64,000 nt of DNA from contig DATAHN010000130.1 of NCBI GenBank assembly GCA_036263155.1, forward strand, positions 1,649-65,648, in the 5' to 3' direction. Made by a program: the position numbers and the translations under genes. The DNA comes from Gammaproteobacteria bacterium. GTDB taxonomy: Bacteria; Pseudomonadota; Gammaproteobacteria; Natronospirales; REEB76. The notes under the pieces are model-generated. The model was not told the DNA's origin, ran no database searches, and saw only the letters and a program-made list of their open reading frames with translations. Positions 42,164-64,000 of the stretch are shown piece by piece. The stretch's first letter is position 1. Every line of letters begins with the position of its first letter.

Positions 42164-42167
<4 letters not shown>

Positions 42168-47440: not shown

Positions 47441-48874
47441 TCAGCGGCCGTAGATGTCGTCGAAACGCACGATGTCGTCCTCGCCCAGGTACGAGCCCGT
47501 CTGCACCTCGATGATGGCGAGGTCGGTATCGCCGGGGTTGCTGAGGCGGTGCTTGTGCCCGGCCGGGATGTAGGTGGACTGGTCGTGCTCGAGCCTGAAG
47601 GTCTTGTCGCCGTTCACGATCTCGGCCACGCCCTCGATCACCACCCAATGTTCGCTGCGGTGCTCGTGCATCTGCAGCGACAATGAAGCGCGCGGCTTCA
47701 CTACGATGCGCTTCATCTTGTAGTGCCGCCCCTCCTCCAGCACCGTGTAGGTGCCCCAGGGCCGGTGCACGGTGCGGTGCAGCCTGGCGGACTCGTGGCC
47801 GTCCTGCTTGAGCTTGTCCACCACTTGCTTCACGTCCTGGGTGCGGTCGCGGTGCGCGATGAGCACCGCGTCCGGCGTATCCACCACGATGAGGCCTTCC
47901 ACGCCCACCGCGGCGACCAGCCGGTCCCCGCCCTGCACGTAGTTGTCGCGGGAATCCACCAGGATGGCCTGGCCCACCACCCGGTTGCCCTGGGCATCGG
48001 GGGCGGTGAGCTCGCTGACGGAGCGCCAGGAACCGATGTCGCTCCACCCGATGGCGCTCGGTACCACCTTCACGTTGTCGGCCTTCTCCATCACCGCATA
48101 GTCGATGGAGATGGCCGGCGTCTGGGGGAACAGCTCGGATTCGATCTGCACCGCGCGCGGGTCCTTGGCGGCGGCGGCGCTGCGCTTCCAGGATTCCTGG
48201 GTCTTGGCATAGATGTCCGGGGCGTAGCGCTGGATGGCGGCGAGGATGCCGTCCGCCCGGAAGCAGAACATGCCGGAGTTCCAGAGGTAATCGCCGGAGG
48301 CCAGGAACGACTTGGCCCGCTCCAGGTCCGGCTTCTCCACGAAGCGCTTCACCGCGCCCGCCGCGCCCTGCTTCCAGGCGCCGGAGGACTGGATGTAGCC
48401 GTAACCTGTCTCGGGCGCCGTGGGCACGATGCCGAAGGTGACGAAGCTGCCCTTCTCCGCTTCAGGTGCGGCGACCGCGACGGCTTTCAGGAAGGCGTCG
48501 CGGTCTTCCACGAGATGGTCTGCCGGCAGCACCAAGAGCAGCGTGCCGCCGCCGTGGCGTTCCGCCGCCATGAACGCCGCCATGGCGATGGCGGCAGTAG
48601 TGTTGCGGCCGACCGGCTCCAGCAGGAAGGAGACCTTGGCGCCGTTCAGCGCCGCCTGCATGCCCTCGAGTTGCTCCTGGCTCTGGAAATGGTGGTCGCG
48701 GTTCGTGACGATGATGACGTCGCTCACGCCCGGCAGCGCAGCGGAGCGCGCCAGCGTGCTCTGCAGCAACGTCATGCCGCCCTGCACCTGCATGAAGGGC
48801 TTGGGGCGCGTCTCGCGCGACACCGGCCAGAGCCTCGTGCCGGCGCCGCCGGAGATGATGACAGGCAGGATCAT
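47441..48874 (-). CDS. manC: mannose-1-phosphate guanylyltransferase / mannose-6-phosphate isomerase
   Basis: 477 aa with an N-terminal [12 protein letters not shown] nucleotidyltransferase motif and a C-terminal cupin isomerase domain ([11 protein letters not shown]). Confidence 0.9.
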
Positions 48875-50274
48875 GCGTGGGCCCTGGCCGCGGGAGCGCC
48901 CATCTTATCAATGAACGCCAGGAGCTCATCGGTGCGGGCCCGCATCAGCGCCGCGTCGCGGCGGGCCTCCACGTTGAGCCGCAGGACCGGCTCGGTGTTG
49001 GACTTGCGCAGGTTGAAGCGCCAATCCTTGTATTCCAGGCTGAGGCCGTCAACCTGGTCCATGTGGGTCGCTGCAGGCTGGTACTTGGCCTCCACCGCCG
49101 CGATCACCCCATCCGGATCCGCCACCACCCGGTTGATCTCGCCGCTCACGGGGAATGCAGCCTGCTGCGACTCGACGAGCTGCTTCAGGCTCTGGCCGGT
49201 GCGGCTCACCAGCTCCGCCACCAGGAGCCAGGGAATCATGCCGCTGTCGCAGTAGCGGAAGTCGCGGAAATAGTGGTGTGCGCTCATCTCGCCGCCGTAG
49301 AGCGCGTCCTCGCGGCGCATGCGTTCCTTGATGAAGGCGTGCCCGGTCTTGCTCAACACTGGCAGGCCCCCGGCGGCCTTCACCGTCTCGATGGTGCCCC
49401 AGGTGAGGCGCGGGTCATGGACGATCTTCGCGCCCGGGTGGCTCGCCAGCAGCGTGCGCGCCAGGAGGCCAACCAGGTAGTAGCCTTCCACGAAGCCGCC
49501 GTCGCCGTCGAAGAAGAAGCAGCGGTCGAAGTCCCCGTCCCAGGCGATACCCATGTCGGCCTTGTGCGCGCGCACCGCCTCGGCGGTGACGTCGCGGTTC
49601 TCCGGCAGCAGGGGGTTGGGGATGCCGTTGGGGAAGTGCCCGTCGGGCTCATGCTGCAACTTCACGAACTTGAACGGCAGCTCGGGCTCCATCACGTCGA
49701 TGACAGGTCCCGCGCAGCCGTTGCCCGCATTGGTGACGATGGTTAGGGGCTTGAGTGCGCCCACGTCCACGTATTCCAGCAGGTGGCGCACGTAGTCGCG
49801 CTTGAGGTCCAGCGCCTTGCAGCGGCCGCGCTTGTGGGGCGTCTTCCATTCGGGCCGCGCCGCCACCCGTGCCTTGATCTCGAACAGGCCGCTGTCGCCG
49901 CTCACCGGGCGCGAGTCCTCACGCACCAGCTTCATGCCGTTGTAGCCCTGCGGGTTATGGCTGGCGGTGACCATGATGCCGCCGCCCAGGTTGCGGCTGA
50001 AGGTGGCGTGGTATACCTGCTCGGTGCCGCACAGGCCGATGTCGAGCACGTCGGCACCGGCGTCCTGCACGCCGCGCGCCACGGCGGCGGCGAGCTCGGG
50101 GCTGGAGAGGCGCACGTCACGGCCCACCGCCACGCGCTTCGGGCCCGTGAGCTCCACGAAGGCGCGGCCGATGGCATAGGCGATGTCCGCGTCCAGTTCC
50201 TCGGGGACGCGGCCGCGGATGTCGTAGGCCTTGAAGGCGGCGCCCAGGCGGGCGGCCAGGTCGGTGGCTGTCAT
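48871..50274 (-). CDS. manB: phosphomannomutase/phosphoglucomutase
   Basis: 467 aa with the active-site loop TASHNP and the metal loop DGDFDR. It overlaps the manC start. Confidence 0.9.
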   Translation of the reverse strand: MTATDLAARLGAAFKAYDIRGRVPEELDADIAYAIGRAFVELTGPKRVAVGRDVRLSSPELAAAVARGVQDAGADVLDIGLCGTEQVYHATFSRNLGGGIMVTASHNPQGYNGMKLVREDSRPVSGDSGLFEIKARVAARPEWKTPHKRGRCKALDLKRDYVRHLLEYVDVGALKPLTIVTNAGNGCAGPVIDVMEPELPFKFVKLQHEPDGHFPNGIPNPLLPENRDVTAEAVRAHKADMGIAWDGDFDRCFFFDGDGGFVEGYYLVGLLARTLLASHPGAKIVHDPRLTWGTIETVKAAGGLPVLSKTGHAFIKERMRREDALYGGEMSAHHYFRDFRYCDSGMIPWLLVAELVSRTGQSLKQLVESQQAAFPVSGEINRVVADPDGVIAAVEAKYQPAATHMDQVDGLSLEYKDWRFNLRKSNTEPVLRLNVEARRDAALMRARTDELLAFIDKMGAPAARAHA

Positions 50275-50331
50275 ATATAGAGGGGCCGGGCCCGCGACAG
50301 GACCGGCGGCGGCGTTGCTTATGGAAGGCGG

Positions 50332-50337
50332 ATTATA
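50332..50337 (-). promoter_or_regulatory. candidate -10 element (perfect TATAAT on the minus strand) upstream of manB
   Basis: The reverse complement of 50332-50337 is TATAAT. It lies in the 81-nt gap after the wbpM-like gene, and I saw no good -35. Confidence 0.3.
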
Positions 50338-50355
50338 GACCGTGGGGCGCGGGGC

Positions 50356-52248
50356 TCACGACTTTACCAGGCGCAGGGCGACGCGGCCCGGGCCCTGTTC
50401 CCCGCTCTCGGCCTGGGGCGTGAACTCAGGCACCAGCGCGCGCAGCTGCGCCTTGGCCCGCTCCGGGTCCGCCGCCACCGCCTGCAGGCTGTCGATGCCG
50501 GCATTCAGCACGTCGAGTTGGGCCGGCACCGCGTTGGCCAGCAGCAGCTTGGGATGGGTGGTGCCCTTGAGCTCCTCGCGGGTGTAGAAGAGCTCCTCGT
50601 GCATCTTCTCGCCGGGCCGCAGGCCCGTGTACACGATCTGGATGTCCTGGTGGGGCCTGAGGCCCGAGAGCTGGATCAGCTTCTCGGCCAGGTCGCGGAT
50701 GCGCACCGGCTCGCCCATGTCCAGCACGAAGATCTCGCCGCCGCGGCCGATGGCGCCGGCCTGCATGATGAGGCTGGCGGCCTCGTGGATGGTCATGAAG
50801 TAGCGGGTGATGTCCGGGTCGGTGACGGTGACCGGGCCGCCGGCGGCGATCTGCCGCTCGAACAGCGGCACTACCGAGCCGTTGGAGGCCAATACGTTGC
50901 CGAACCGGGTGGTGACGAAGTGGGTGCCGGCGTCGCGGTTAAGCGCCTGGCAGTAGAGCTCGGCCACGCGCTTGGTGGTGCCCATCACGTTGGTGGGGTT
51001 CACCGTCTTGTCGGTGGAGATCAGCACGAACTTGTCCACGCCATGGCGTAGCGCCGCGTCGGCGATGACGCGGGTACCGAAGATGTTGTTGCGGATGCCC
51101 TCTGCGACGTTCTCCTCCACGATCGGCACGTGCTTGTAGGCGGCGGCGTGGAAGATGATCTCGGGCTTGACCTGGGCGAACAGCGTCTCCACCGCGGTCT
51201 CGTCCTGGATGTTGCCGAGCGCGCTGGTGAACACCAGCGAGGGCGCGGTGGCGGCCAGCTCCTGGTCGATGCTGTAGAGGTTGTACTCGCTGTTGTCCAT
51301 CACCACCAGGAGCGCCGGGTCATGGCGGCTGATCTGGCGGCACAGCTCGGCGCCGATGGAGCCGCCGCCGCCCGTCACCAGCACGCGCTTGCCGCGCAGG
51401 AAGTCTGAAATGGCGCGCGAGTCCAGCACCACGGGGTCGCGACCCAAGAGGTCCTCGACCGTGACGGGGCGGAGGCGCGAGACCTCGACACGGCCGTCGG
51501 CCAGTTCCGTGAGGGAGGGCAGCGTGCGACAGGGCACATGCACCTCGTTGCACATCTGCACCACCCGGTCCATGGTCTTGCGCGAGGCCGCGGGCATGGC
51601 GATGAGCACGATGTTCGCGTCGTAGGCGCGCACCAGGCGAGCGATGTCGTCGAGGCGGCCGCGCACCCGCACGCCCTGCACCTCGTGGCCCTGCTTCTCG
51701 GCGGCGTCATCCACCAGCGCCACCGGCAGGAACGGCCCATGGCGACGCAGGTCGCGGATCAGGAGCTCGCCGGCGCGGCCGGCACCGACGATGATGGCGC
51801 GCGCGGTGCTCTCGTCGCCGAAGGTCATCCAGCGGTCCTTGAGCACGCGGTACAGCATGCGGCTGCTGCCGAGGCCGATCGCGAGCAGGATCGGGTACAG
51901 CAGCAGCACCGAGCGCGGCACGCCCTGCAGGCGGCCGAACAGGAATGCCGCCAGCACGGTGGCGAGCGCGCCCAGCACCGTAGCCTTGAGGATGCGCATC
52001 AGGTCTGGGATCGAGGCGTAGCGCCAGATGCCGCGGTAGCAGCCGAACATCCACAGCGTGAGCGCGTGGGCCGGCAGCGCCATGCAGGTGATGAGCAGCA
52101 TGCCGCCGAAATAGATGTGCGGGATCGGGGTGAGGTTGAAGCGCACCCAGTAGGCGAGCAGTACGGCGACCGGGATCCACAGCAGATCGTGGAGGAACAC
52201 GGTCCACCGGCTGCGCAACAGCAACCACCCGTCTCGTCTAGAGCCCAT
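50356..52248 (-). CDS. membrane-anchored nucleotide-sugar 4,6-dehydratase (CapD/WbpM/PglF-like)
   Basis: 630 aa with N-terminal TM helices and two Rossmann regions (VTGGGGSIG). It follows the WbpM-type architecture. Confidence 0.85.
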   Translation of the reverse strand: MGSRRDGWLLLRSRWTVFLHDLLWIPVAVLLAYWVRFNLTPIPHIYFGGMLLITCMALPAHALTLWMFGCYRGIWRYASIPDLMRILKATVLGALATVLAAFLFGRLQGVPRSVLLLYPILLAIGLGSSRMLYRVLKDRWMTFGDESTARAIIVGAGRAGELLIRDLRRHGPFLPVALVDDAAEKQGHEVQGVRVRGRLDDIARLVRAYDANIVLIAMPAASRKTMDRVVQMCNEVHVPCRTLPSLTELADGRVEVSRLRPVTVEDLLGRDPVVLDSRAISDFLRGKRVLVTGGGGSIGAELCRQISRHDPALLVVMDNSEYNLYSIDQELAATAPSLVFTSALGNIQDETAVETLFAQVKPEIIFHAAAYKHVPIVEENVAEGIRNNIFGTRVIADAALRHGVDKFVLISTDKTVNPTNVMGTTKRVAELYCQALNRDAGTHFVTTRFGNVLASNGSVVPLFERQIAAGGPVTVTDPDITRYFMTIHEAASLIMQAGAIGRGGEIFVLDMGEPVRIRDLAEKLIQLSGLRPHQDIQIVYTGLRPGEKMHEELFYTREELKGTTHPKLLLANAVPAQLDVLNAGIDSLQAVAADPERAKAQLRALVPEFTPQAESGEQGPGRVALRLVKS

Positions 52249-52264
52249 CTGAATCCGTTCCTCT

Positions 52265-53290
52265 TTAAGTCGGCGCGCGTCGGCGCTCGAGCACGTTCAC
52301 GTACGCGACGAGCACCAGGTAGACCGCCGCCGCCCACCCCAGCAGGAGTCCCTGAACTCCTGTTTCAGTGAAACAAAAGCCAGCCACGGCTAGCAAGCTA
52401 CATTTTAACATAAGCCCGTATTCCCAGAGTACCACCCTGCGGTGACTCCAGCCCAACCCCACCAAGCGCTGATAGAAGTGCCCCCGGTGGGCCTGCCAGG
52501 GCCGCGAGCCATGCACGGCACGACGTATCACCGTCCAGGTGGCGTCCACCACGAAGGGCGAGAACACCAGCAGTCCCAACCAGAGGGGGAAGAGGCCTTG
52601 CCGTTCCGCCCAAAGAAGGAACAAGGCCACCAGCAGGCCCAGGCTCCCCGAACCTACGTCCCCCATGAACAGGCGGGCCGGCGGGAAGTTGAAGGGCAAG
52701 AAGCCCCCCGCTGCTGCTGCCACCAGCAATGCCACGCAGGTGAACACAGGCGCATGGGCCAAGAAGCCCAAGAGCGCGAACGTTCCGAAGCCGATGACGG
52801 CCATGCCGCCGGCGAAGCCGTCCATCCCGTCCATGAAGTTATACAAGTTGATCAGCCAGACGGTCAGCAGCAGGCTGAACGCCATGAGCACCCCATGGGG
52901 TGCCTGCCATTCCCATCCCGGCAGGAGATGCAGGGATTCGAGCGCATACCCGCCCCAGTCCACCAATCCCAGAGCCGCAAGCACGTGCACCAGGAGACGC
53001 AGCCACACGGGCAGCCGCCAGACATCATCGGCGAAGGAGACGGTCGCCACCATCACCAGCGGCGCCGCCACCCAACCCAGGCCGGGCACATGCAGACCGG
53101 TGGCGAGCAGGCCTGCGGCGAGGCCCGCCAGGATCGCGAGGCCGCCGGAGCGCGGCGTCGCGCCGGAATGGAGCGAGCGTGCATTGGGCAAGTCCAGCAA
53201 CGCGAACCGCCCCCGGTAGCGGCTCAGGAAGCGGGCCAGCGCGGCGCTCGCGACGAACGCAAGGACGATCGAGAGCGCAACACGCGTCAC
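52265..53290 (-). CDS. undecaprenyl-phosphate HexNAc-1-phosphate transferase (WecA/WbpL family, polyprenol-phosphate initiating enzyme)
   Basis: 341 aa and polytopic. Has the NLYNFMDGMDG motif typical of the MraY/WecA family. Confidence 0.85.
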   Translation of the reverse strand: MTRVALSIVLAFVASAALARFLSRYRGRFALLDLPNARSLHSGATPRSGGLAILAGLAAGLLATGLHVPGLGWVAAPLVMVATVSFADDVWRLPVWLRLLVHVLAALGLVDWGGYALESLHLLPGWEWQAPHGVLMAFSLLLTVWLINLYNFMDGMDGFAGGMAVIGFGTFALLGFLAHAPVFTCVALLVAAAAGGFLPFNFPPARLFMGDVGSGSLGLLVALFLLWAERQGLFPLWLGLLVFSPFVVDATWTVIRRAVHGSRPWQAHRGHFYQRLVGLGWSHRRVVLWEYGLMLKCSLLAVAGFCFTETGVQGLLLGWAAAVYLVLVAYVNVLERRRAPT

Positions 53291-54126
53291 GGCATCGGCT
53301 CCGGCGTGAACGGCCGCGGCCGGATACCGAGCGCCTGCTCCGTTGCAGCGCAGTCGAACACCATGTCCCGGTTCATGCGTTCCGCCACCTCCGGCGTGAG
53401 GGCGCGGTAACGAGGCAAGAGGCGCGCGGTGGCGATGGCGGCGCGGTAAAGGAAGACCGGCACCGGCAGGATGCGCGGCTCGCGTCCCAGCGCCCGGAAG
53501 ATGCGCTCCAGCATGGCGCGGTAGCTCAGGGTCTCACCGCCGGCGATCTCGTAGGCTCCCGACTGCGGCAGCGTGAGTGCCGCCACGCAGGCGGCGGCGA
53601 GATCGTCCGCGTGCAGCGGTTGGCGCATGCCCCGCCCCGGCCAGGCCAGCGGAAAGAAGCCGATGCGGCGGATGAGTGCGGCGATGCGCGCCACGTTCTT
53701 GTCGCGCCGGCCATCGTAGACCAGCGTCGGCCGGAGCAGCGTGTAGACCATGCCGCGGGCGCCACAGGATCCGATCATCCCCTGCTCCGCCTCCCGCTGG
53801 TGGCGCACCAGCTCCCGTTCGCGGTGCGAGGCCGAGTCCACCTTGGTGTAGACGCTGGTGGTGCCGATGGCCACCACCCGGCGCAAGCCCGCGGGCGCGT
53901 CCCGCAGCAGCCGCGGCAGCAGCGGCAGGGGCGCCAGATGGATGAGTGCCTGAGTATCTTCGAGCGCGGCGTCCCACACGGGATCCCGGGCTACATCGGC
54001 CTGATGCCATGCACTGTCGGGATGAGGCCGGCGGCTCAGTACCGTGACCTCATGGCCCGCGCGGGCGAGGCGCGGCAGGAGGTAATCTCCCACCACGCTG
54101 CTGCCCCCGGTCACCAGCACGCGCAC
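53287..54126 (-). CDS. NAD(P)-dependent epimerase/dehydratase-family (SDR) protein
   Basis: 279 aa with an N-terminal VLVTGGSSVVG Rossmann motif. It is located between the WbpL-like gene and a GT2 gene. Confidence 0.7.
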   Translation of the reverse strand: MRVLVTGGSSVVGDYLLPRLARAGHEVTVLSRRPHPDSAWHQADVARDPVWDAALEDTQALIHLAPLPLLPRLLRDAPAGLRRVVAIGTTSVYTKVDSASHRERELVRHQREAEQGMIGSCGARGMVYTLLRPTLVYDGRRDKNVARIAALIRRIGFFPLAWPGRGMRQPLHADDLAAACVAALTLPQSGAYEIAGGETLSYRAMLERIFRALGREPRILPVPVFLYRAAIATARLLPRYRALTPEVAERMNRDMVFDCAATEQALGIRPRPFTPEPMP

Positions 54127-54130
54127 GAGC

Positions 54131-55000
54131 TCAGCTCCGCCGCAGCCGGACGATGGGCGCGAGCAGCAGGAAGCGCGACCAGATGCCGAGCCACACCAGC
54201 GCCGTGAGCCAGGCGGGGCTCGCGGCTCGCTGGAACTTGGAGAAGTAGCGCCACATGCCGCGGTGCTTGTGCCAGAGCACGAACACCGGCCGGCCGCGGC
54301 TGGAGGCGCCCTGCGCGTGGCTCACGCTCACGTCCGGCACGAACAGCACTCCTGCCCCGGCCTGCTGCACGCGCTTGCAGAGATCGAGGTCCTCGCAGTG
54401 CAGGAAGTAACCTTCGTCCCAGCCTCCGAGCCGTTCGAAGAGGTCACGGCGTATCAGGAGGCAGGCACCGGAGATGGCTTCCACCGGCACGGGACCGTCC
54501 GGCAGCGCTGTGCCGGTGAGGTCGAAGCCGCTCACCTTGCCGTCGGTGCCCGGACCGTCAAGCTTGAGCACGCGCATCAGCGCGCGGCGCGTGTCCGGCA
54601 GGTGGCGGCGGCAGCCGCGCTGCTCGCTGCCGTCGCTGTTCAGCACCAATGGACCCAGCATGCCCGTCTCGGGATGCGCCTCAAGCACCGCCACCAGGCG
54701 CTCGAGCGCGCCCGCCGGCATGCGACAGTCGGGGTTGATGAACAGGAGGTAGCGGCCGGTGGCTGAGGCGGCGCCCTGGTTGCAGGCGGCACCGAAACCG
54801 CGGTTCACGGGATTGCGCGCCAGCACCACGCCGGGATGCACACCGGATTCCAGAAACGCGAGGCTGCCATCGGCGGAGGCATTGTCCACCACCACGGTGC
54901 GGACCAGGCCCGCCTGGCCGGCGAGGGATTCCACCAGGCCGCGCAGCAGCGGACCGGCGTTGTAGTTGACGGTGACCGCCGTGACCGCCGCGGCGGACAC
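54131..55000 (-). CDS. family 2 glycosyltransferase
   Basis: 289 aa. Has VTVNYN, VVVDNASADGS, NRGFGAACNQG and a DxD-like region (HCEDLDLC), as in the rhamnosyltransferase-like GT2 subgroup. Confidence 0.85.
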   Translation of the reverse strand: MSAAAVTAVTVNYNAGPLLRGLVESLAGQAGLVRTVVVDNASADGSLAFLESGVHPGVVLARNPVNRGFGAACNQGAASATGRYLLFINPDCRMPAGALERLVAVLEAHPETGMLGPLVLNSDGSEQRGCRRHLPDTRRALMRVLKLDGPGTDGKVSGFDLTGTALPDGPVPVEAISGACLLIRRDLFERLGGWDEGYFLHCEDLDLCKRVQQAGAGVLFVPDVSVSHAQGASSRGRPVFVLWHKHRGMWRYFSKFQRAASPAWLTALVWLGIWSRFLLLAPIVRLRRS

Positions 55001-55001
55001 C

Positions 55002-56063: not shown

Positions 56064-56080
56064 GCTCCGTGCGCGGCGCT

Positions 56081-59000
56081 CTAGCCCGCCGCCTTGAGTT
56101 CCGCCTGCCGGTCGATGGAGGTGATCACCTCCGCGAGGCGTTCGCGGATCACCTCCGGCGAGTAGCGTTCCCGCACCACCCGCCGCCCGGCCTGCGACAT
56201 GCGCTGCCACAGCTCGGGGTCGGTGTAGGCGCGCACCACCGCGTCGGCGAAGCTCTGCGGGTCGTCGCCGATCAGCACCTCGCGCCCATCCTCCACGTAC
56301 ATGCCCTCAGCGGCGATGGAGGTCGCCACCACCGGCAAGCCGTAGCTGAAGCTGGTGCCGAGCTTGCCCTTGATGCCGGCGCCGAAGCGCAGCGGCGCCA
56401 CCATGAGGCGGCAGGAGTTGAAGTAGGGGGTGATGTCCTTCTGGAAGCCCAGCACCTGGATGTGGTCGCAGGCGAGATCGCGGATCTCCGCCGGGGGCCG
56501 CGAACCCAGGATCAGGAACCTGAGGTCCGGGATACGGCTCCTCAGCGCGGGCAGCACTTCGCGGCAGAAATACAGCACCGCTTCCACGTTGGGGTTGTGC
56601 TGGTAACCGCCGATGAACAGGATGTCGCGGCGTGCCTCGAAGCCGGGACCCTGCGGCTCCTCCGGGATGACCAGCTGCACCACGTGCACGTTGGCGCGCG
56701 GCGCCTCCTGGGCCAGGAGCTCCTTCTCCACCGGGCTCACCACGATGCTGGCGTCCGACTCGCGGATGAGCTTGAGCTCGTCGGCGCGGGTGCGCTCGGC
56801 GCGGTCGGCGATGAGCGGGTTGTTCTCCACCGCCGCCTGGCGGCGTTCGCGCAGATAGTGCAGGTCCACGGTGTCATAGATGACGCGCAGGCCGGGCGCG
56901 GCTTTCTTGAGGTGGTCGAGGTGACGGATCGCCACATAGGGCCGGCACAGCATGGCGAGCTGGAACTCGCCGGCGCGGGCCTTGATGAACTGGTCCACCG
57001 ACACGCAGTGCGGCTCGTACACGCACTCGATGCCGAGCCGTTGCAGGTCGCGGGTGTACTCGCCGTCGTGCAGCAGGTTGTCCGGCACGAAGGTGACCTT
57101 GTAGCCCAGGGACTGCAGCAGCTTCAGGTGGTAGAACTTCAGCAGCGAACCTGCGTCGTGGTCCGGACGCGGCGTGTTGGCGTCGATCACCAGCAGACGC
57201 TTGGTGACGCCGCGGTCCTTCTCCAGCAGCGGCAGCATGCCGTTGGGGCGGTGCGAGGCCAGCACGTCCTGCCAGCGTTCGTGCAGCTTCTTGAGATTCA
57301 CCACCTGGTACTTCTTCACGCCGGAGCCGAGGTCGGTGCCGGAGCTCACGCCCTCATAGTGCACGATGGTGGAGAGCGGCTGGTACAGGACCCTGAGGCC
57401 GCGCTTCCTCACCTGGAACGCGAGGTCGGTGTCCTCACAGTAGGCGGGTGCGTAGTGGCTGTCGAAGCCACCGAGCTCGCGGAACAGCGCCAGAGGCACC
57501 ATGATGCTGGCGCCGGAACAGTAGTCCACGTCCCGCAGGTAGTTGTACTCGGGACGGTCCGGGTCGTCGAAACGGCCATAGTTCCAGGCGGAGCCGTCGC
57601 GCCAGACGATGCCGCCCGCCTCCTGCAGGCGCCCATCCGGGTACACGAGCTTGGAACCCACCAGGCCCGCCTCGGGCACCTGGCCGAAGGTGGCACGCAA
57701 CTCGTCCAGCCATCCCGGCAGCACCTGAACGTCGTTGTTCAGGAAATACACGTAGCGGCCGCGCGCCGCGGCGGCGCCGGCGTTGCAGGCGCCGATGAAC
57801 CCGAGGTTCTGCTCGTTCTTGACCACCCGTATGCCCTTGCAACGGGCCAGCACCGTCGGGGTGTCATCTGACGAGCAGTCGTCCACCACGATCACCTCGA
57901 AAGGCGTCGTGGCGCCGACTGCGGCAATGGACTTCAGGCAGTGCAGCGTGTGGGCCACATTGTTGTAGACGGGGATCACCACCGAGACCTCAGGCGTCTC
58001 CGAGGTGGCGAGGACCAGACCCTCGCCCGCCAGCACCGCGGCCGGGCCCTTCGGGTCCACCTTGTCGCCCCGCACCGCGCGGGTCTTGTAGTCGGCGCTG
58101 CCGGGGGCGCCGGCGCCGAACAACCGGCCGAGGCTGCGGCGCAGGATCATTCGCAGGCGCATGGGCATGGGGATGCGGTAGTACACGTCGCGCGCCACCA
58201 GCCTCAGCATCCCCGCGTCCATGAAGCGCAGCTTGGGGATGGAGCGCAGCATCACCATCAGGCCGCGCAGCGGCGCGGTCACGCGCCAGGAGGTGGAGTG
58301 GTACAGGGCCTGCAGTTCCTGCTTGAGATGCGCGAGTTCGCGCAGCTCGCCGCGCTGCCATTCCAGCTCCTGGGCCCTGGCCAGCGCGAGGCCGGCGTGG
58401 TGGCCGCGCTCCTCGGCGATGTGCTTGATCTCCTGGTCGCGGGCCTGGATCAGGCGGTCCTTGTCGGCCAGGGCCGCGTCGCGTGCGTGCAGCTCGGCAT
58501 ACAGCGCGCCCAGGATGTGGTCGAAGCCGGCGCTCAGGCCAGAGAGCTCCTTGCCGAGCCGGTCGAGTTGGGTCGCGTCGGCGCCACCGGCCAAGGTCTT
58601 GTAGGTGTCGCGGGTAAGCCGCCCGAGTTCGCCGCCCGGCATCAGCTCCGGCTTCTGGTGGTGGCGCAGCTCCTTGTGCACGAAGCCGGCCATGCCCTGG
58701 TCCAGGGCCCGCTCGTCCGCGGGCCAGGCGAGTCCCAGCTTCTCCCAGGCGGGCTTGAGCGCGCCGCGCCAGTCCGCCAGCACCGCGGCGTAGTCCACCA
58801 CGGCGCGCGGGCCGCCGCGGCTCGCCGCCTCCGCGTCCAGAAGGTAGCGCAAAGTCAGCAGTGCCGACTTCTCCGGCGCGAAGCCGTTACGCGCCTTGAG
58901 GGAGGCGATGATCTCAGCGGGATCACGGGTCGCGATCAGGTAGCAGGGCTGCCAGCCGAGCTCCCGCAGCAGGTCCTGCCACAGCGGCAGCATGCGGCAG

Positions 59001-59323
59001 AGACGCGGATCCTTGACGCAGGCGAGTTCCGCCGCGCCGAAGTCGCGCTGCAGCACCGCCTTCAGTGCATCCCGCTGCGGACGGACGGTCTCGTAGTTCC
59101 ACCACTTGTCCGGCAGCGCCCGCACGTCGTCCCAGGCATAGCCGAGCTTGCCCAGTATCTCGTCATGGATGCGCACGATCTCGTCGTGCTCCCAGAACCC
59201 CATCACGTTGTCCTGGCCCGCCGCCATCATGCGCTCGCCGAGTTCGGCGCCCAGCAGGCGGCAGCTGCCCGCCAGCACCGAGGTGCCGCTGCGATGCATG
59301 CCGAGGATCATCAGCATCTTCAT
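56081..59323 (-). CDS. multidomain sulfotransferase-like / coiled-coil / GT2 / GT4-like glycosyltransferase
   Basis: Trimmed to the ATG at 59323 ([15 protein letters not shown]), which overlaps the upstream stop as ATGA. 1080 aa. Residues 1-245 have a P-loop-type sulfotransferase motif GMHRSGTS plus [12 protein letters not shown]. Residues about 255-342 are a heptad-rich helical stretch ending in [11 protein letters not shown]. Residues 445-660 are GT2 ([30 protein letters not shown]). Residues 705-1075 are GT4-like ([18 protein letters not shown] ... [21 protein letters not shown]). Confidence 0.75.
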
Positions 59324-60267
59324 GCGGAACGTCCCCACAGTGCGGACAGACGCGCGCCCAGGCCGCGGCGGATGCGCTCCACCGGCGGCGCCTGGAGGCG
59401 CCGACAATGCTCTTCAAAGAGCCGCTGCATCTCGGCGTGGGCGCCGGCATCGCCCTGCTCCAGGCCCTCGGGCGCCGCCAGCATGTCACGGTAGAGCTGC
59501 TCGGCCTCGCGGGCGGCGGCGGTGGAGGTATCCACCGGCATCGAATCCTTCTCCACCTCGGAACTATTGATCTTGTTGTCGAGCGGCTTGAGGCAGTCAG
59601 CGGAATAAGCTTCGCCCAGGAACGCCAGCACACGCCGGAACGCCTGCTCCGGCTCGCCGGTGAAGTCCTCGTAGCGCACGCGCAGCATGCGCGCGCGGCC
59701 GAGCGCCCGCTCGCCGAGCCAGGCGGCACGGGTGAGCCGGAGCCAGGTGCGATAGGCCTCATCGTGGGCGTAGTCGCGGGCGCCGGTGCGGGAGAACTTC
59801 ATGAGCGAGCGTGCCACGTCGTGCGGGTTGCGCAGCAGGTGGATGAAGCGCGCGCCGGGAAACAGGCGCAGCAGCGGGTATATATAGTGGGAATTCTCGG
59901 GGGTCGCGTCGGCCCAGCGGCGCTTGGGATCGGCCGGGGAACGGCGCCGGTGCATCTCGCCCTTCACCTTGCGCTCGGTGTGCTCGATGAGCCGCTGGTT
60001 GGCGGTGCCCATGAGGTGCTGCAGGCCTTCGCCGAACAGGCGGTAGAACTCGTCCTCGTCCATGCCGATCTGGCCCAGGTGCGAGAAGCCGCCGTTCACG
60101 GTGGCGAGGCGATAGAGGTTGTCCAGGTCCACGCCCAGACGCGCCAGCCAGTTGGTCTCCGGCAGGTTGACGATGTTGGGGTGCTGGCCGAGGCACCAGC
60201 AGAAGATGCTGGTACCGGAGCGGTAGGAACCGACCACGAACACCGGGCTGTGGCTATGGTCCGACAT
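59320..60267 (-). CDS. sulfotransferase family protein
   Basis: 315 aa with a 5-prime-PSB-like motif [10 protein letters not shown] and a 3-prime-PB-like motif [13 protein letters not shown]. Confidence 0.75.
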
Positions 60268-60327
60268 CGGTGACGGGGTCCTTGGGGAAACGCTGGAGCC
60301 GGCGGCGGCAAGACCCTGAATTTTATC

Positions 60328-61515
60328 TCAAATCCCCCTGCCAGTCCCCGGCGGCGAAAACATCCCCGGCTCGCCGTCCCGGGTGTAGCCCATGGCGGCG
60401 AGCTCGATGCCGGCGATACGCCAAACCAGCGCCCGGTCACGGGCGGTCAGGCTCTCGCGCCATTCCCCCGCCACGCCCTTGCGCATCACGTCCTGCCCGG
60501 CCACGCCCCGCGGCCGCCCGCTCTGGGCCTCGAAGGAGCTGGCTTTGGCCACCGCCGCCACCGTGGCCGGTGAGGCGTCGGCACCGAGCGACTGCAGGAG
60601 ACGCGTGAACTGGCCGTCGAAATCCGTGAGCAGATCCTCGTAGCGCAGCACCGTGAGTTCGCCCCGCTCCGCAGCCTTGAGCACCCGCCGCACCCGGTCC
60701 GCCCACACCGAGAGGGAGCGGCCGAGGCGCCAGTCCTCGCCGTACCCCGCCAGGCGACGCAACGCGGTGACGCCGCGGATGCCCGCTTCCCGCGCCAGCG
60801 CCACCGGCTTCATGAAGCTCACGTGGCTGTGCTGCCAGGCCATGCGCCGCTCACGCATGAGCTGGCGGTAGTGGAACGCGGATACCGCCGCGTCCCGGCC
60901 GTCCCGCACGATCGCTACGCGCGGCGCCTGGGGCCGCCACTCCCTGAGCGCGTCCAGGCACAGGATCTGGTCCGCGCCCTTCAGCACCAACCGCTGGCCC
61001 GGCTTGAATGCAGGTGCCAGTGCCGCCAGGAACCCGTCCATGGCCGCCGCGGGCGTGCCCGCCTTACGCAGCGCCTCGAAGGCCGCCGCCAGCAGTGCCG
61101 GCGGGAAGTTGAGGAAGCCCACCGGCTTGCCCCGGGAGGCCCGCTCACCGCCCGTAGCGGAGCCTTCCGTCAGCATCGCCGTCAGCGTCCGCACCGCGGC
61201 CTCCGCCGGCAGATCGTAGAGGGATGCAACGTCGCGGTGGCGGCCGTCGGGGAGATAACGATGAAACGCGCCAGGCGCGAGTTGCTCGGCCCTGAGCGCG
61301 CAGAACGCGCTCCTGCCGAACACGTTGGCGAGCCGCTCGCGCGGCGGCAACAGGTGCCGGCCGCTACGGCCGGCCACAGACCGCAGCACGTCCAGCTCAC
61401 GCAGGGCGGAGAACTCGGGATGGGCCGCCAGCGCCGAGAGCAGCCAGCTGGTGCCGTTCTTGTAGAGGCCGACGATGAAGACCGGGTCGGATCCGGACGT
61501 GGGACGCGGGCTCAC
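60328..61515 (-). CDS. sulfotransferase domain protein
   Basis: 395 aa. Has IVGLYKNGTSW (5-prime-PSB-like), IVRDGRDAAVS (3-prime-PB-like) and the C-terminal RKGVAGEWRE motif. Its start overlaps the wzt stop (ATGA). Confidence 0.75.
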   Translation of the reverse strand: MSPRPTSGSDPVFIVGLYKNGTSWLLSALAAHPEFSALRELDVLRSVAGRSGRHLLPPRERLANVFGRSAFCALRAEQLAPGAFHRYLPDGRHRDVASLYDLPAEAAVRTLTAMLTEGSATGGERASRGKPVGFLNFPPALLAAAFEALRKAGTPAAAMDGFLAALAPAFKPGQRLVLKGADQILCLDALREWRPQAPRVAIVRDGRDAAVSAFHYRQLMRERRMAWQHSHVSFMKPVALAREAGIRGVTALRRLAGYGEDWRLGRSLSVWADRVRRVLKAAERGELTVLRYEDLLTDFDGQFTRLLQSLGADASPATVAAVAKASSFEAQSGRPRGVAGQDVMRKGVAGEWRESLTARDRALVWRIAGIELAAMGYTRDGEPGMFSPPGTGRGI

Positions 61516-62225
61516 GGCCGGCGGCCGCCGGGCCGCAGGCTCTGCTGGTAGCGTTTCACCACCGCATCGGGCTCGCCCACCTCCACCGTCACGCCCTGGT
61601 CCACCCAGGCGACGCGGTCGCAGAGCTCCATGATGGTCTCGGGATGGTGGGTCACGATCACCACGGTGCGGCCGGAGGCGATCTTCTCGCGCATGGCGGC
61701 GGAGGATTTCTCCTTGAAGGCGGCGTCGCCGACGCCGAGCACCTCGTCGATCAGCAGCACGTCCGGGTCCGCCTGCACCGCCACCGTGAAGCCGAGGCGC
61801 GCGCGCATGCCGGAGGAGTAGGTCCGCACCGGCTCGTCGATGAACTCCTGCAGCTCGGCGTAGCGCACCATCTCATCCATGCGCGCCTCCACCTCGCGGC
61901 GGGTGAGGCCGAGCAGGATGCCGGACAGCACCGCGTTCTCACGCCCGGTGAGCGCCGGGATGAAGCCCGCCTGCAGCGCCAGCAGGGAGACCCGCGCGGT
62001 GTGGCGGATCACCTCGCCCGTGTCCGGCGCCAGGATGCCGGCCAGGAGGCGCAGCAGCGTGCTCTTGCCGGCGCCGTTGCGGCCTATGATGCCGAGCGTC
62101 TCGCCGTGCTTCAGGCCGAAGCTCACGTCGTGCAGCGCCCAGAACGCGTGGTGGCGCATGAAGCCGGCCTTGCGCCGGTAGCGCACGCCCACGTTCCTGA
62201 GTTCGATGATGTTGTCGCCGCTCAT
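61512..62225 (-). CDS. wzt: polysaccharide ABC exporter ATP-binding protein (Wzt/KpsT-like, nucleotide-binding domain only)
   Basis: 237 aa with Walker A GRNGAGKST, signature YSSGMRARL and Walker B LLIDEV. There is no C-terminal extension. Confidence 0.85.
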   Translation of the reverse strand: MSGDNIIELRNVGVRYRRKAGFMRHHAFWALHDVSFGLKHGETLGIIGRNGAGKSTLLRLLAGILAPDTGEVIRHTARVSLLALQAGFIPALTGRENAVLSGILLGLTRREVEARMDEMVRYAELQEFIDEPVRTYSSGMRARLGFTVAVQADPDVLLIDEVLGVGDAAFKEKSSAAMREKIASGRTVVIVTHHPETIMELCDRVAWVDQGVTVEVGEPDAVVKRYQQSLRPGGRRP

Positions 62226-62228
62226 GGT

Positions 62229-62993
62229 TCAGCCCAGCATCAGCTTGGGATAGATGCGGTCGTAGCGCCGTAACAGCCATAGCGCCAGCCCATACAGCAG
62301 CAACGAGGCGGCCACCACCCAGGCGAGGCTGCCCCAGTCGGGCCAACGCCTGCCCAGCAGCACGTCGCGGAAACCGGTCACCACGTGCACCATGGGGTTG
62401 AATCGCAGCACCGCCTGCACGCTCGGCGGCAGCTCCGCCACGTCCTTGATGATGCCGGACATGAACATCATCACGATCAAGCCGTTGCTGACCACGAGGT
62501 CCAGGTCCGGCAAGAGCGGCACCACCGCCGCCACCAGCGAGGACAGGGCCAGCACCAGCAGGAGCTCCACCAGCACCAGCGCCGGCAGCGCCACCCAGGT
62601 GGCGCTCACACCATGGCTGGCGGCGGTGAACAGCATGAGCAGGGCGAGGATGATGATGAACTTGATGCCGTTGGTGACCAGCACCAGCCAGGGCAGCACG
62701 TACTTGGGCAGGTAGACCTGTTGGATCAGACCGCTGTTGGCCTCGATGATCCTGGAGCCGTTCTGCACCGAGCTCGCGAACCACTTCCAGGGCACCAGGC
62801 CGCAGAGCAGGAACAGCGCGTAGTGGCTGCCGCCGGCGCGCACCCCGAGGCCGAACGCGACATAGAAGGCCAGCATGTAGAGCAAGGGTTCCAGCACCCA
62901 CCAGACGAAGCCCACGAAGGCGCGCGCGGCCTCGGCCCTGAGTTCCGCCATGCCCTTGTACCAGACGAGTTCGGCGTACCCCGGCCGGCGCAT
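62229..62993 (-). CDS. wzm: polysaccharide ABC exporter permease (ABC-2 type, Wzm-like)
   Basis: 254 aa with 6 TM segments and a typical Wzm N-terminus (FVGFVWWVLEPLLYMLAF). It is directly upstream of wzt. Confidence 0.85.
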   Translation of the reverse strand: MRRPGYAELVWYKGMAELRAEAARAFVGFVWWVLEPLLYMLAFYVAFGLGVRAGGSHYALFLLCGLVPWKWFASSVQNGSRIIEANSGLIQQVYLPKYVLPWLVLVTNGIKFIIILALLMLFTAASHGVSATWVALPALVLVELLLVLALSSLVAAVVPLLPDLDLVVSNGLIVMMFMSGIIKDVAELPPSVQAVLRFNPMVHVVTGFRDVLLGRRWPDWGSLAWVVAASLLLYGLALWLLRRYDRIYPKLMLG

Positions 62994-63047
62994 GCTGTGG
63001 TTCTCCCTGGAGACTGGGTGCGGTGCGCGGGAATCGCGCGGGCGGCA

Positions 63048-64000
63048 TTATAACCCGACGTGGAACCGCCCTACCTCGATGCGGTGGGCATCACCGTTGC
63101 AGCTCAGGCGCAGCACATGATCGCCCGGCAGGAACAACGGCAGCCGGCCGGTCATCACCGCATCGAGCATGTCGTTGCCCTTGTCCTCGATCCTGAGCTC
63201 CTCGAAGCCGAGCCAGGCATGCACCCGCCGCGCGCCGCCGCGGTACCGGATGTGGAACACCGGGCTGCCGTCCTGCTGGGGGTTGAATCCGTGCCCCCAG
63301 CGCGTGGACCGGGGCTCCCACTCCGTCACCTGGATGTCGCAGGGCTGGCTCGGGTTCGCGTCCGAGAGGTAGGAGAGGCCCAGGGACGGGATATCCAGGG
63401 CCCGCTCCGGGTCGCCGTACAGCATCGCCGTGGTGTAGCCGGCGCCGCCCACGAGGTCGGTGCGGAACACCTGCATGTCCGCGTGCCAGCGGTTCACCTG
63501 GCGACAGGTCTCGCTGCGGGTGTCCGGCGCACAGAACCCCGGCGTACCCCGGTCCGGCACCACCAGCAGCCGGCCGTTGCGCATACGCGGGTGCAGTCCC
63601 GGCGGCGGTGTGAACACGTCGAGCTCCGTGGGTCCCTGCACGTGCAGCAGCCCGAGCAGCAGGCGCGGCAGCTCGTACAGCGAAAGGTGCCCAAGCTTGA
63701 GCGGGCCGTTGCGCCCGTCGATCACCAGGAGCGGGGTGCTCTGGTGCACCTCCAGCATGGCCGGCGTGAACTCCTCCTCCCGGAGGCCCGTGAGCCCCGA
63801 GCGGTGGAACGGTGCGAAGCCATCCCCCAGCACCGGCAGGTGATCGCCGAAAGCCACGATCAGCGCATCCGGGTCGCGCGCCCGCAGGCGCTGGATGTAG
63901 GCGGCGAGCTCGGCGGTGTCGTAGTACACGCTGTCGGCATAGCCGTCGATGAGCCTGTCCTTCGAGCTGCCGTGGATACGCGACGGGCGCTTGCGCGCGT
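63048..64000 (-). CDS. sulfatase-fold (alkaline phosphatase superfamily, LTA-synthase/phosphoglycerol-transferase-like) protein, 5-prime end outside the window
   Basis: The reading frame stays open to the window edge. Has FGDHLP and the LSLYELPRLLLGLL context typical of the C-terminal part of sulfatase-fold transferases, plus an extra C-terminal domain of about 140 aa. Confidence 0.6.
   Translation of the reverse strand, partial: ARKRPSRIHGSSKDRLIDGYADSVYYDTAELAAYIQRLRARDPDALIVAFGDHLPVLGDGFAPFHRSGLTGLREEEFTPAMLEVHQSTPLLVIDGRNGPLKLGHLSLYELPRLLLGLLHVQGPTELDVFTPPPGLHPRMRNGRLLVVPDRGTPGFCAPDTRSETCRQVNRWHADMQVFRTDLVGGAGYTTAMLYGDPERALDIPSLGLSYLSDANPSQPCDIQVTEWEPRSTRWGHGFNPQQDGSPVFHIRYRGGARRVHAWLGFEELRIEDKGNDMLDAVMTGRLPLFLPGDHVLRLSCNGDAHRIEVGRFHVGL

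Follow-up and report, generated by a model that had tools for sequence, protein, structure and literature searches.

A Wzm/Wzt-type locus with free-standing and polymerase-fused sulfotransferases: candidate genes for a sulfated O-polysaccharide in an uncultured gammaproteobacterium

Gene content of the locus

The subject of this analysis is a 64,000-nucleotide stretch (hereafter the window) of contig DATAHN010000130.1, which derives from an uncultured, soil-type gammaproteobacterium with a GC content of 68%. The 3' quarter of the window, positions 47441-64000, is filled by 13 co-directional minus-strand genes that appear to specify the synthesis, sulfation and ATP-binding cassette (ABC) transporter-dependent export of a glycan. 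Among them is a gene for a protein of 1080 amino acids (aa) in which a sulfotransferase domain is joined through a long helix to two glycosyltransferase (GT) modules. Every assignment is backed by Pfam and/or NCBIfam profiles (E-values in brackets), and the genes are as follows:

47441-48874, minus strand: manC, mannose-6-phosphate isomerase/GDP-mannose pyrophosphorylase, 477 aa (NTP_transferase 2e-49, ManC_GMP_beta-helix 9e-22, MannoseP_isomer 4e-49)
48871-50274, minus strand: manB, AlgC-like phosphomannomutase-phosphoglucomutase, 467 aa (four PGM_PMM domains, 2e-34 to 4e-10)
50356-52224, minus strand: WbpM-like membrane-anchored UDP-N-acetylhexosamine (HexNAc) 4,6-dehydratase, 622 aa (Polysacc_synt_2 3e-118, N-terminal CoA_binding_3 6e-17)
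52265-53290, minus strand: WecA/WbpL-type polyprenyl-phosphate HexNAc-1-phosphate transferase (PNPT), the initiator, 341 aa (Glycos_transf_4 2e-33)
53287-54126, minus strand: short protein of the extended short-chain dehydrogenase/reductase (SDR) type, 279 aa (Epimerase 2e-16)
54131-55000, minus strand: stand-alone GT2, 289 aa (Glycos_transf_2 2e-22; weak match to the rhamnosyltransferase model TIGR01556, 2e-8)
55002-56063, minus strand: GSCFA-family protein, 353 aa (PF08885 1e-43)
56081-59323, minus strand: sulfotransferase/long-helix/GT2/GT4 protein, 1080 aa (GT2 2e-27, Glyco_trans_1_4 2e-24)
59320-60267, minus strand: free-standing sulfotransferase, 315 aa (Sulfotransfer_3 2e-29)
60328-61515, minus strand: free-standing sulfotransferase, 395 aa (Sulfotransfer_1 4e-17, Sulfotransfer_3 6e-16)
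61512-62225, minus strand: wzt, ABC transporter ATPase, 237 aa (ABC_tran 2e-24)
62229-62993, minus strand: wzm, ABC-2 permease, 254 aa (ABC2_membrane 7e-10)
63048-64000, minus strand: C-terminal 316 residues of a predicted LtaS/GacH-type (sulfatase-fold) gene that runs past the end of the window

Four gene junctions are 4-nucleotide ATGA or GTGA start-stop overlaps, including manC/manB (ATGA), SDR/PNPT (GTGA) and the 315-aa sulfotransferase/1080-aa gene (ATGA), and the arrangement is therefore consistent with a single operon. The gene lengths of 1080, 353, 315, 395, 237 and 254 aa recur in independent calls on a metagenome contig of 99.98% identity. The frame of the WbpM-like gene is open to 52248, and its start at 52224 was adopted from the gene call in locus L001. 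A horizontally transferred island finds no support in base composition, the GC content of the locus not being atypical for the window.

A sequence-only reading of the same DNA had listed these genes and described a glycan locus that depends on an ABC transporter and includes a WecA-family initiator and a WbpM-type dehydratase. All of the genes are present on the minus strand where it had placed them. The Pfam annotation that it had proposed, run on the open reading frames (ORFs) of the locus, upholds the listed identities, with profile matches for Wzm/Wzt, PNPT and the dehydratase among them. Its statement that wzx, wzy, wzz and KpsD/E-type genes are missing is likewise borne out, as neither the ORFs of the locus nor 32 larger upstream ORFs match the Wzx, Wzy, Wzz or KpsD/E/C/S families in Pfam or NCBIfam; the single related match is a Wzy_C-family protein outside the locus, described below.

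The WbpM-like protein scores below the NCBIfam cut-offs for PseB and FnlA, and the PNPT matches the TIGR02380 WecA model (2e-24) under its equivalog cut-off. The nearest solved structures to the SDR are NmrA-like or atypical SDRs (2e-8). The stand-alone GT2 is a candidate adaptor or side-chain transferase. It lies next to the GSCFA gene, whose product gave no match in the NCBIfam scan and no membrane segment in transmembrane prediction. In an 80%-identical relative (L007) both are encoded as a single 620-aa GSCFA::GT2 fusion (positions 13293-15155 of that locus). Because of this fusion, the genes suggest that the GSCFA family works together with the stand-alone GT2.

Against NCBIfam, Wzt is closest to TagH (1e-52) and the galactan Wzt/RfbE (2e-51), and Wzm to the galactan Wzm/RfbD (2.5e-9) and KpsM (1e-8), both of the latter under the cut-off. 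The C-terminal carbohydrate-binding module (CBM) found on some related Wzt proteins has no counterpart here: Pfam returns no Wzt_C match, and the C-terminal extension measures 0 residues.

Both free-standing sulfotransferases exceed the Pfam sulfotransferase cut-offs. The 315-aa protein carries the 5'-phosphosulfate-binding (5'-PSB) loop GSYRSGTS at residues 13-20 and the 3'-phosphate-binding (3'-PB) motif RNPHDVARS at residues 146-154. In the PDB it matches an olefin-synthase sulfotransferase domain (1.5e-7) and that of CurM (4e-5), and in one homologue (P0007) a sulfotransferase of this type is fused to the polymerase. The corresponding motifs of the 395-aa protein are GLYKNGTS (16-23) and RDGRDAAVS (204-212), and its segment RKGVAGEW (345-352) is the RKGxxGEW motif of the cytosolic SULT enzymes, as aligned to solved sulfotransferases. 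The number of free-standing sulfotransferases among relatives ranges from 0 to 2, as expected for a serotype-like decoration.

The 1080-aa protein and its N-terminal sulfotransferase domain

The full-length AlphaFold2 (AF2) model of the 1080-aa protein has a mean predicted local distance difference test score (pLDDT) of 86, and its elements, all on the minus strand, are:

58589-59323, minus strand: N-terminal sulfotransferase domain, residues 1-245
58337-58576, minus strand: single helix, residues 250-329, uninterrupted for 80 residues in AF2; candidate coiled-coil spacer or ruler
residues 333-401, minus strand: small helical region (AF2) that contains the motif S-x-S-W-R-x-T-x-P-L-R
58265-58297, minus strand: the S-x-S-W-R-x-T-x-P-L-R motif itself, residues 343-353
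residues 402-445, minus strand: disordered linker (AF2)
57224-57988, minus strand: GT2 (GT-A) module, residues ~446-700, a highly conserved block (Glycos_transf_2 2e-27, AF2)
56084-57202, minus strand: GT4 (GT-B) module, residues ~708-1080, PimA-like in the PDB (Glyco_trans_1_4 2e-24, TIGR03087 2e-37)

Queried as a single sequence, the N-terminal domain reaches Pfam Sulfotransfer_3 at E=0.16, below the cut-off, and matches no NCBIfam model; a single-sequence PDB search with the N-terminal 442 residues gave no match. A profile of the family retrieves almost exclusively sulfotransferases from the PDB, with the tyrosylprotein sulfotransferases best (~3e-4) and sulfotransferases only down to E ~0.1. 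The AlphaFold model of the domain has a pLDDT of 92, and its best 17 Foldseek matches are all sulfotransferases, including TPST2, the CurM and olefin-synthase sulfotransferase domains and Stf9, with template-modelling (TM) scores of ~0.5. The domain contains a 5'-PSB loop GMHRSGTS (residues 8-15), a KDPR motif (104-107) and a 3'-PB motif RDPAEIIAS (133-141). Sets of 34 and of 47 homologues show no variation at G8, H10-S15, E45, K104-R107, R133, S141 and R145, and apart from E45 these are exactly the residues that bind 3'-phosphoadenosine 5'-phosphosulfate (PAPS). By profile and predicted fold, the domain is confirmed as a sulfotransferase. The earlier claim of three PAPS-type sulfotransferase modules in the locus thus stands, with family or fold matches for all three and intact 5'-PSB and 3'-PB motifs in each.

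This domain is present in 106 of 120 polymerase homologues. The sulfotransferase domain family as a whole, poorly covered by Pfam, comprises 31,518 clusters (50% identity) at E<=1e-3 and 14,486 at E<=1e-30. It is mostly N-terminal in the best 150 matches, in proteins of 245-2256 aa. Certain homologues (P0064, P0087, P0091-P0094) combine an N-terminal sulfotransferase with S-adenosylmethionine (SAM)-methyltransferase domains in single polypeptides of 1370-1590 aa. Such a pairing of modifying activities on a single ruler protein is reminiscent of WbdD, with its methyltransferase and kinase. A swap of methyltransferase for sulfotransferase among the top homologues was considered and rejected, as those methyltransferase-bearing proteins also keep the sulfotransferase domain.

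The helix at residues 250-329, the counterpart of the coiled coil named in the sequence-only reading, has a pLDDT of 50-66, a low value that is expected for a coiled coil modelled as a monomer. Behind it, the S-x-S-W-R-x-T-x-P-L-R motif gave no family match. Its W346 is invariant, and S343, S345, P351 and R353 are at least 90% conserved across 47 homologues down to 36% identity. A part in docking or in membrane association is conceivable for it. In the homologues, 94 to 386 aa separate the sulfotransferase from this motif. Between the motif and the GT2 module the interval changes little, most values lying within 84-124 aa and the outermost being 68 and 155. The GT2 and GT4 modules are the sole candidate polymerase in the locus. 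As modelled, the succession of sulfotransferase, helix, GT2 and GT4 is the layout of the Klebsiella single-protein terminator-ruler-polymerases WbbB (O12) and ORF6 (O7).

Homologous loci and the wider gene neighborhood

A scan with the family alignment, at one genome per species, yielded 79 loci that were annotated with reference proteins. The gene arrangement past position 64000 rests on four relatives (L005, L007, L009 and L075), and the exact-protein matches are contigs that end inside the same sulfatase-fold gene. L005 (GCA_036383255.1) is 91.4% identical in DNA over 18 kb and collinear up to window position 64000. Upstream of its wzm lie two tandem sulfatase-fold genes (724 and 714 aa) followed by rmlB, rmlD and rmlC. 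L007, with a polymerase 80% identical to the present one, carries cysD, cysNC, rmlA, rmlC, rmlD and rmlB ahead of wzm and wzt. There follow two sulfotransferases, the polymerase, the GSCFA::GT2 fusion, the SDR, PNPT, WbpM, manB, manC, miaB and phoH. The row in L075 (polymerase 71%) is cysNC, rmlACDB, an LtaS-like gene, wzm, wzt, one sulfotransferase and the polymerase. In L009 (polymerase 59%) a Sat-CysC PAPS-synthase fusion precedes rmlACDB, wzm, wzt, one sulfotransferase and the polymerase, and this 23-kb locus has rml genes and neither manB nor manC.

PAPS genes thus adjoin the locus in three relatives and are of two unrelated kinds, CysD plus CysNC or CysNC (L007, L075) and Sat-CysC (L009). 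The co-occurrence of PAPS and sulfotransferase genes has been called a hallmark of sulfated-polysaccharide clusters (PMC11641403). The search for PAPS supply that the sequence-only reading had recommended is therefore answered positively for these relatives, and in the 64-kb window itself no cysD, cysN or cysC is found. The dTDP-rhamnose (rml) genes are constant beside wzm in L005, L007, L009 and L075. As these genes stand just past the window end in relatives, the polymer probably contains rhamnose, and L-rhamnose is, on gene content, at least as likely a backbone sugar as mannose. The AlgC-like ManB may feed both the GDP-mannose and the dTDP-rhamnose routes. Because it could serve both pathways, and because the L009 polymerase occurs without manB and manC, a simple polymannose is argued against. 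The mannose-containing polymer proposed earlier is accordingly not established, given the rml genes beside wzm in four relatives.

The sulfatase-fold fragment in the window is identical at 301 of 316 positions (95%) to the C-terminus of the 724-aa L005 protein. That orthologue has N-terminal transmembrane segments (residues 17-163) followed by the sulfatase-fold domain. It matches Sulfatase (1e-26), the NCBIfam LtaS model (2e-17), and, in the PDB, LtaS (3e-18) and GacH (6e-10); the lipoteichoic acid (LTA) primase is also among the best solved-structure matches of this protein and its paralogue. The C/S-x-P-x-R formylglycine signature of sulfatases is absent from the catalytic region of the full-length L005 orthologues. 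These contain a GGGTANSEFE motif, which we take to resemble the LtaS segment that carries the catalytic threonine. More distant homologues are named 'LTA synthase family protein' or 'phosphoglycerol transferase MdoB-like' in the databases. The extra C-terminal region of ~250 aa gave no family match, and of the whole gene the window contains this region only. The earlier label of a sulfatase-fold enzyme holds for the fold but not for the activity. A sulfatase was rejected on account of the LtaS/GacH-like best matches, the N-terminal membrane segments and the missing signature, and the sequence features indicate an LtaS/GacH/MdoB-type phosphoglycerol transferase. The predicted outcome is therefore a further anionic decoration, periplasmic glycerol phosphate or a related phospho-alcohol, rather than desulfation. 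GacH adds glycerol phosphate to an ABC-exported streptococcal rhamnose polysaccharide (PMC9574508). The likeness to GacH and LtaS (PDB 5u9z, 2w5q; PMC9574508) extends to the placement of a membrane-anchored sulfatase-fold enzyme beside a cluster for an ABC-exported rhamnose polysaccharide. The differences are the Gram-negative host, the extra C-terminal region and the two tandem paralogues in L005.

Across the homologous loci what precedes the GT2-GT4 chassis (43-50% identical) differs: it may be a sulfotransferase (many phyla), a SAM methyltransferase with a coiled coil (L017, L028), an extra GT4 with a long coiled coil (Lysobacterales, Curvibacter) or nothing. The two loci with a methyltransferase N-terminus, in which the chassis is 43-48% identical, adjoin Wzt proteins with a Wzt_C CBM. 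We counted the pairing of polymerase and Wzt wherever wzt lies within 10 kb, assigning the CBM by Pfam Wzt_C:

non-sulfotransferase polymerases: Wzt_C CBM in 8 lineages, short CBM-less Wzt in 1 lineage
sulfotransferase-type polymerases: Wzt_C CBM in 2 lineages, short CBM-less Wzt in 9 lineages, including the present locus

The sole non-sulfotransferase lineage without a CBM (L082) has two 315-type sulfotransferase genes. The sulfotransferase-type lineages with a CBM-bearing Wzt are L008 (Desulfosediminicola ganghwensis, CP050699) and L012. In L012 sulfotransferases are the only non-glycosyltransferase modifying modules in the row of genes from wzm to ST247, and a methyltransferase gene lies ~4 kb off on the opposite strand. 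In D. ganghwensis wzm is accompanied by genes for a CBM-bearing Wzt, a glycosyltransferase of the RgpF type and a sulfotransferase-type polymerase of 1360 aa. Rhodanobacter glycinis MO64 (L061) has cysD-cysNC, two LtaS-like genes and a GT2-GT4 protein of 685 aa that lacks an N-terminal domain. These two organisms are cultured carriers of related systems and are possible experimental models.

Elsewhere in the window a gene bearing on the attachment of the glycan lies 5 kb downstream of manC, beyond miaB-phoH-ybeY-corC:

40392-42341, minus strand: polytopic membrane protein of the Wzy_C/O-antigen-ligase family, open frame of ~649 aa, candidate WaaL (Wzy_C 3e-19)

Its product has many transmembrane segments and scores weakly and about equally against the NCBIfam O-oligosaccharyltransferase (TfpM) and O-glycosylation ligase models. 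The 513-aa ORF that follows it (42164-43705) is probably lnt, judged from position and from synteny with L010. L010 (GCA_030949385.1, 1-23627), from a gammaproteobacterial metagenome-assembled genome, carries a different glycan cluster in the same slot beside miaB-phoH-ybeY-corC-lnt. This cluster comprises rmlC/D, heptose-pathway genes, a Sulfotransfer_2-like gene and genes for a WbaP-type initiator and a sulfotransferase-type polymerase of 1208 aa. The slot has the look of a hot spot for variable surface glycans. At 2701-9347, on both strands, lies a lipid A/core cluster with waaA (the transferase for 3-deoxy-D-manno-octulosonic acid, Kdo), hldE (kinase/adenylyltransferase), an lpxL-type acyltransferase, a GT1-like protein and a GT9 heptosyltransferase, and yhdP is also in the window.

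The remaining genes examined include a HAMP histidine kinase and an OmpR-type regulator beside a resistance-nodulation-division (RND) efflux pair, an HlyD-type adaptor and an AcrB-type pump (9485-16073); a gene for an outer-membrane efflux protein stands further upstream (1105-2637). Two minus-strand ORFs of 320 and 419 aa (16086-17048 and 35589-36848) show coding-like codon bias, with a third-position GC content (GC3) of 0.88-0.89, and have no Pfam match at E<=1e-6.

A proposed pathway, its alternatives and its meaning

Drawing these lines together, we consider it probable (about 0.65) that the locus is one operon for a sulfated surface glycan that would be linked to undecaprenyl pyrophosphate (Und-PP) and exported by Wzm/Wzt. 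This is most probably a lipopolysaccharide (LPS) O-polysaccharide, with the fused sulfotransferase in the terminator position of the polymerase; on gene content, it is probably also glycerophosphorylated. WbpM and the SDR would convert UDP-GlcNAc to a 6-deoxy-HexNAc, the SDR serving as 4-keto reductase by its context, and PNPT would make the (6-deoxy-)HexNAc-PP-undecaprenol primer. The stand-alone GT2 might then add an adaptor or side-chain sugar, and the GT2 plus GT4 pair would extend the cytoplasmic chain with two linkage types, probably with L-rhamnose in it and possibly with mannose as second or side-chain sugar. The two free sulfotransferases are predicted to sulfate in-chain sugars with PAPS from the cysD/cysNC-type genes that flank the locus in relatives. 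The fused sulfotransferase, ~80 helical residues from the polymerase modules and so in the place that the chain terminator takes in characterised Klebsiella and E. coli systems, would act on chains long enough to reach it. Wzm and the CBM-less Wzt would export the chain, and because Wzt lacks the CBM, recognition of a cap would be no precondition for export. One or more membrane-bound LtaS-like enzymes would then add glycerol phosphate on the periplasmic face, and the Wzy_C-family ligase may join the chain to the lipid A-core. The O-polysaccharide reading has its LPS context in waaA, hldE, lpxL, the heptosyltransferase and the Wzy_C gene of the same window.

The assignment of the fused domain to a terminator slot draws on its N-terminal position, the variable spacer, the methyltransferases that occupy the same place alongside CBM-bearing Wzt proteins, and the pairing found in L008 and L012. 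It draws also on the constancy of the N-terminal sulfotransferase (106/120) while the free ones vary from 0 to 2. The sequence-only reading had treated the three sulfotransferases alike, as modifiers of the chain, and had not remarked that one of them occupies the terminator's place in a ruler-polymerase resembling WbbB. As to what it does there, the sub-mechanism that we favour by analogy is that it caps the non-reducing end and so stops elongation, although we place this a little below an even chance. That it is a third in-chain decorator is a more tentative possibility, and the rest of the probability falls on other roles.

Several observations weigh against this picture. The organism is uncultured and represented by metagenome contigs only, sulfation of the product is a prediction from genes, and it is context that suggests which sugars are used and that the SDR is a reductase. 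The PAPS and rml genes are absent from the 64-kb window, and their presence in the source genome is extrapolated from relatives. Genes for CysD/CysNC also lie near homologous loci without a sulfotransferase domain (L061, L065, L046), and their adjacency may in part be conserved synteny of housekeeping genes. With respect to the ruler, the helix is short (~80 residues), and a home-made heptad score flagged only residues ~268-297. The CBM of Wzt, a defining feature of terminator systems, was looked for and is missing from the 237-aa protein, whereas every characterised terminator system has one (PMC11231755). In the lineage comparison a short Wzt accompanies 9 of 11 sulfotransferase-type polymerases and a Wzt_C domain 8 of 9 others (Fisher p=0.005, with kinship ignored), which tells against the cap. 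On these sequences the Wzt comparison cuts both ways: the slot is clearly one that holds terminators, yet the present clade is without the terminator-associated CBM.

The alternative that survives best is that all three sulfotransferase modules act in-chain. The fused domain would sulfate residues as they are added, the helix would serve oligomerization, and chain length would be set by the coupling of polymerization to export in the absence of any terminator. The short Wzt, here and in 9 of the 11 sulfotransferase-type lineages, and the limited length of the helix fit this view. CBM-less export that does not require terminal modification has precedents in Klebsiella O2a and O1 (PMC11231755). 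It leaves unexplained why the domain should be held at the far end of a spacer that varies from 94 to 386 aa. Nor does it account for methyltransferases in the same slot alongside CBM-bearing Wzt proteins, or for L008 and L012, in which a sulfotransferase-type protein is itself paired with such a Wzt. We regard it as possible, on balance doubtful.

An unlikely alternative, built on the sequence-only reading, is that a polymannose-type O-polysaccharide on an N-acetylquinovosamine or N-acetylfucosamine primer is multiply sulfated before export and that a sulfatase trims or remodels the sulfate. The presence of manB and manC at the operon end and of WbpM, the SDR and PNPT agrees with it, as does the resemblance of the GT4 module to mannosyltransferases such as PimA. 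Set against these are the LtaS/GacH-like character of the sulfatase-fold protein, which lacks the sulfatase signature, and the rml genes that flank wzm in four relatives. L009 moreover keeps the polymerase (59% identity) with rml and without manB/manC in the locus, and the stand-alone GT2 has a weak rhamnosyltransferase-family match.

We think it less likely again that the product is some other Und-PP-linked Wzm/Wzt glycan, be it capsule-like, S-layer or protein-linked, or a released exopolysaccharide. This would suit the weak and about equal scores of the Wzy_C protein against the TfpM and O-glycosylation ligase models and the knowledge of GacH-type decoration from wall polysaccharides. The published sulfated bacterial polymers with gene clusters are, in addition, capsules (PMC11766843, PMC11641403). 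Yet no KpsC/S/D/E or Wza-type export genes were found in the 64 kb, an initiator plus WbpM is typical of O-antigen loci, and the LPS core genes lie in the same window. The slot beside miaB-phoH-ybeY-corC is, moreover, variable and holds an O-antigen-type cluster in L010.

That the N-terminal domain is instead a P-loop kinase phosphorylating the chain end in the manner of the WbdD kinase, or a catalytically dead scaffold, is very improbable: the single-sequence E of 0.16 against Sulfotransfer_3 and the PFKFB, gluconate and adenylate kinases further down among the Foldseek matches (E ~3e-3 to 1e-2) speak for it, but the GMHRSGTS loop has no Walker-A lysine and fits a 5'-PSB, the 3'-PB arginine and serine are invariant, the profile matches sulfotransferases only down to E ~0.1, and the best 17 structural matches are sulfotransferases at TM ~0.5 as against 0.33-0.40 for kinases.

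The operon with a fused sulfotransferase in the terminator position can be set beside several described systems. With WbbB of Klebsiella O12/Raoultella terrigena and ORF6 of O7 (PMC11231755) it shares an N-terminal non-polymerase catalytic domain, a long helix and two glycosyltransferase modules, along with a WecA-type initiator, Wzm/Wzt and associated rhamnose-pathway genes. Their N-termini are a GT99 Kdo transferase or a methyltransferase-kinase, whereas here the fold is that of a PAPS-type sulfotransferase, the helix is shorter and Wzt is without a CBM. Like WbdD-WbdA of E. coli O9a and K. pneumoniae O3 (PMC3482155, PMC11231755), the locus would place a small non-sugar terminating group at the distal end of a coiled coil, has GDP-mannose genes and depends on an ABC transporter. 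In WbdD-WbdA the terminator and polymerase are separate and the methyl-phosphate cap is read by the Wzt CBM; the present locus joins the two in one protein, with sulfate as the candidate cap and a Wzt that lacks the CBM. PDB searches with the N-terminal region or the family profile returned no WbbB or WbdD chain. Because of this lack of a sequence match and the missing CBM, the 1080-aa protein is best said to work like the WbbB/WbdD systems rather than to belong to their family, the likeness being architectural only.

Among sulfated polymers, the closest gene content is that of the capsule clusters of Cobetia marina KMM 1449 and Vibrio sp. KMM 8419 (PMC11766843, PMC11641403), gammaproteobacteria in which ABC export, rml, PAPS-synthesis and sulfotransferase genes are clustered. 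These are group-3 capsules of the kps type (KpsMTED, KpsSC) with separate glycosyltransferases, whereas the present locus combines Wzm/Wzt with a WecA-type initiator and a sulfotransferase fused to the polymerase, and lacks Kps export genes. The Cobetia marina polymer is a disaccharide repeat, Rha2S-Man6PGro, with sulfate and glycerol phosphate on rhamnose and mannose (PMC11766843). The combination of sulfate and glycerophosphate therefore exists in gammaproteobacteria, and the present locus could encode the same. Sulfated O-polysaccharides are also known chemically in Cobetia. LpsS of Sinorhizobium meliloti is a further case of PAPS-dependent LPS sulfation in a proteobacterium, through a stand-alone Stf0-family enzyme encoded away from an O-antigen operon (PMC12445080, citing Cronan and Keating 2004). 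The present modules are of the Sulfotransfer_1/_3 type or belong to a family poorly covered by Pfam. In Aeromonas salmonicida an orphan sulfotransferase gene beside WbbB and Wzt has been noted without explanation. The suggestion that such a system had not been described in gammaproteobacteria thus goes too far, given the kps-type sulfated capsules of Cobetia and Vibrio (PMC11766843, PMC11641403). In the literature searched, no Wzm/Wzt O-polysaccharide locus with assigned sulfotransferases was found. Neither the fusion of a sulfotransferase to a polymerase at the place of the terminator nor the pairing of such a protein with a CBM-less transporter is described in that literature, which excludes two key Whitfield-laboratory papers.

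The class of ABC-dependent O-polysaccharides and the ruler-terminator principle are already known, and chain-length control by terminator and ruler is among the best-understood principles of bacterial glycan assembly. Methyl, methyl-phosphate, Kdo and pyruvate are, to our knowledge, the terminator caps known so far. If true, a sulfotransferase acting in the terminator slot would bring a new chemistry to this list, and its usual pairing with a CBM-less transporter would mean that termination need not be tied to the gating of export. In mammals a sulfate cap has a functional analogue: the HNK-1 sulfotransferase caps the matriglycan of LARGE1 and the terminal sulfate stops a two-glycosyltransferase polymerase. 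The analogy is with separate eukaryotic enzymes that have no ruler helix, and no evolutionary relationship is claimed. As the sulfotransferase domain family is very large (14,486 clusters), it is conceivable, if doubtful, that sulfate is a widespread chain-terminating cap, added by a sulfotransferase on the helical ruler of the polymerase and mostly unaccompanied by a cap-reading CBM. A single terminal sulfate per chain is easily overlooked in structural work.

For soil-type Gammaproteobacteria we know of no carbohydrate sulfotransferase that has been assigned. The locus offers a concrete gene set for a sulfated, glycerophosphorylated O-polysaccharide, with two free and one fused sulfotransferase and with PAPS, rml and LtaS-like genes. 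Polysaccharide sulfotransferases are also wanted for biotechnology (PMC11641403). Polyanionic surfaces of this kind bear on resistance to phages and predators, on metal binding and on host mimicry, and if the cap is real, the family would follow a termination logic unlike that of all characterised O-antigen systems.

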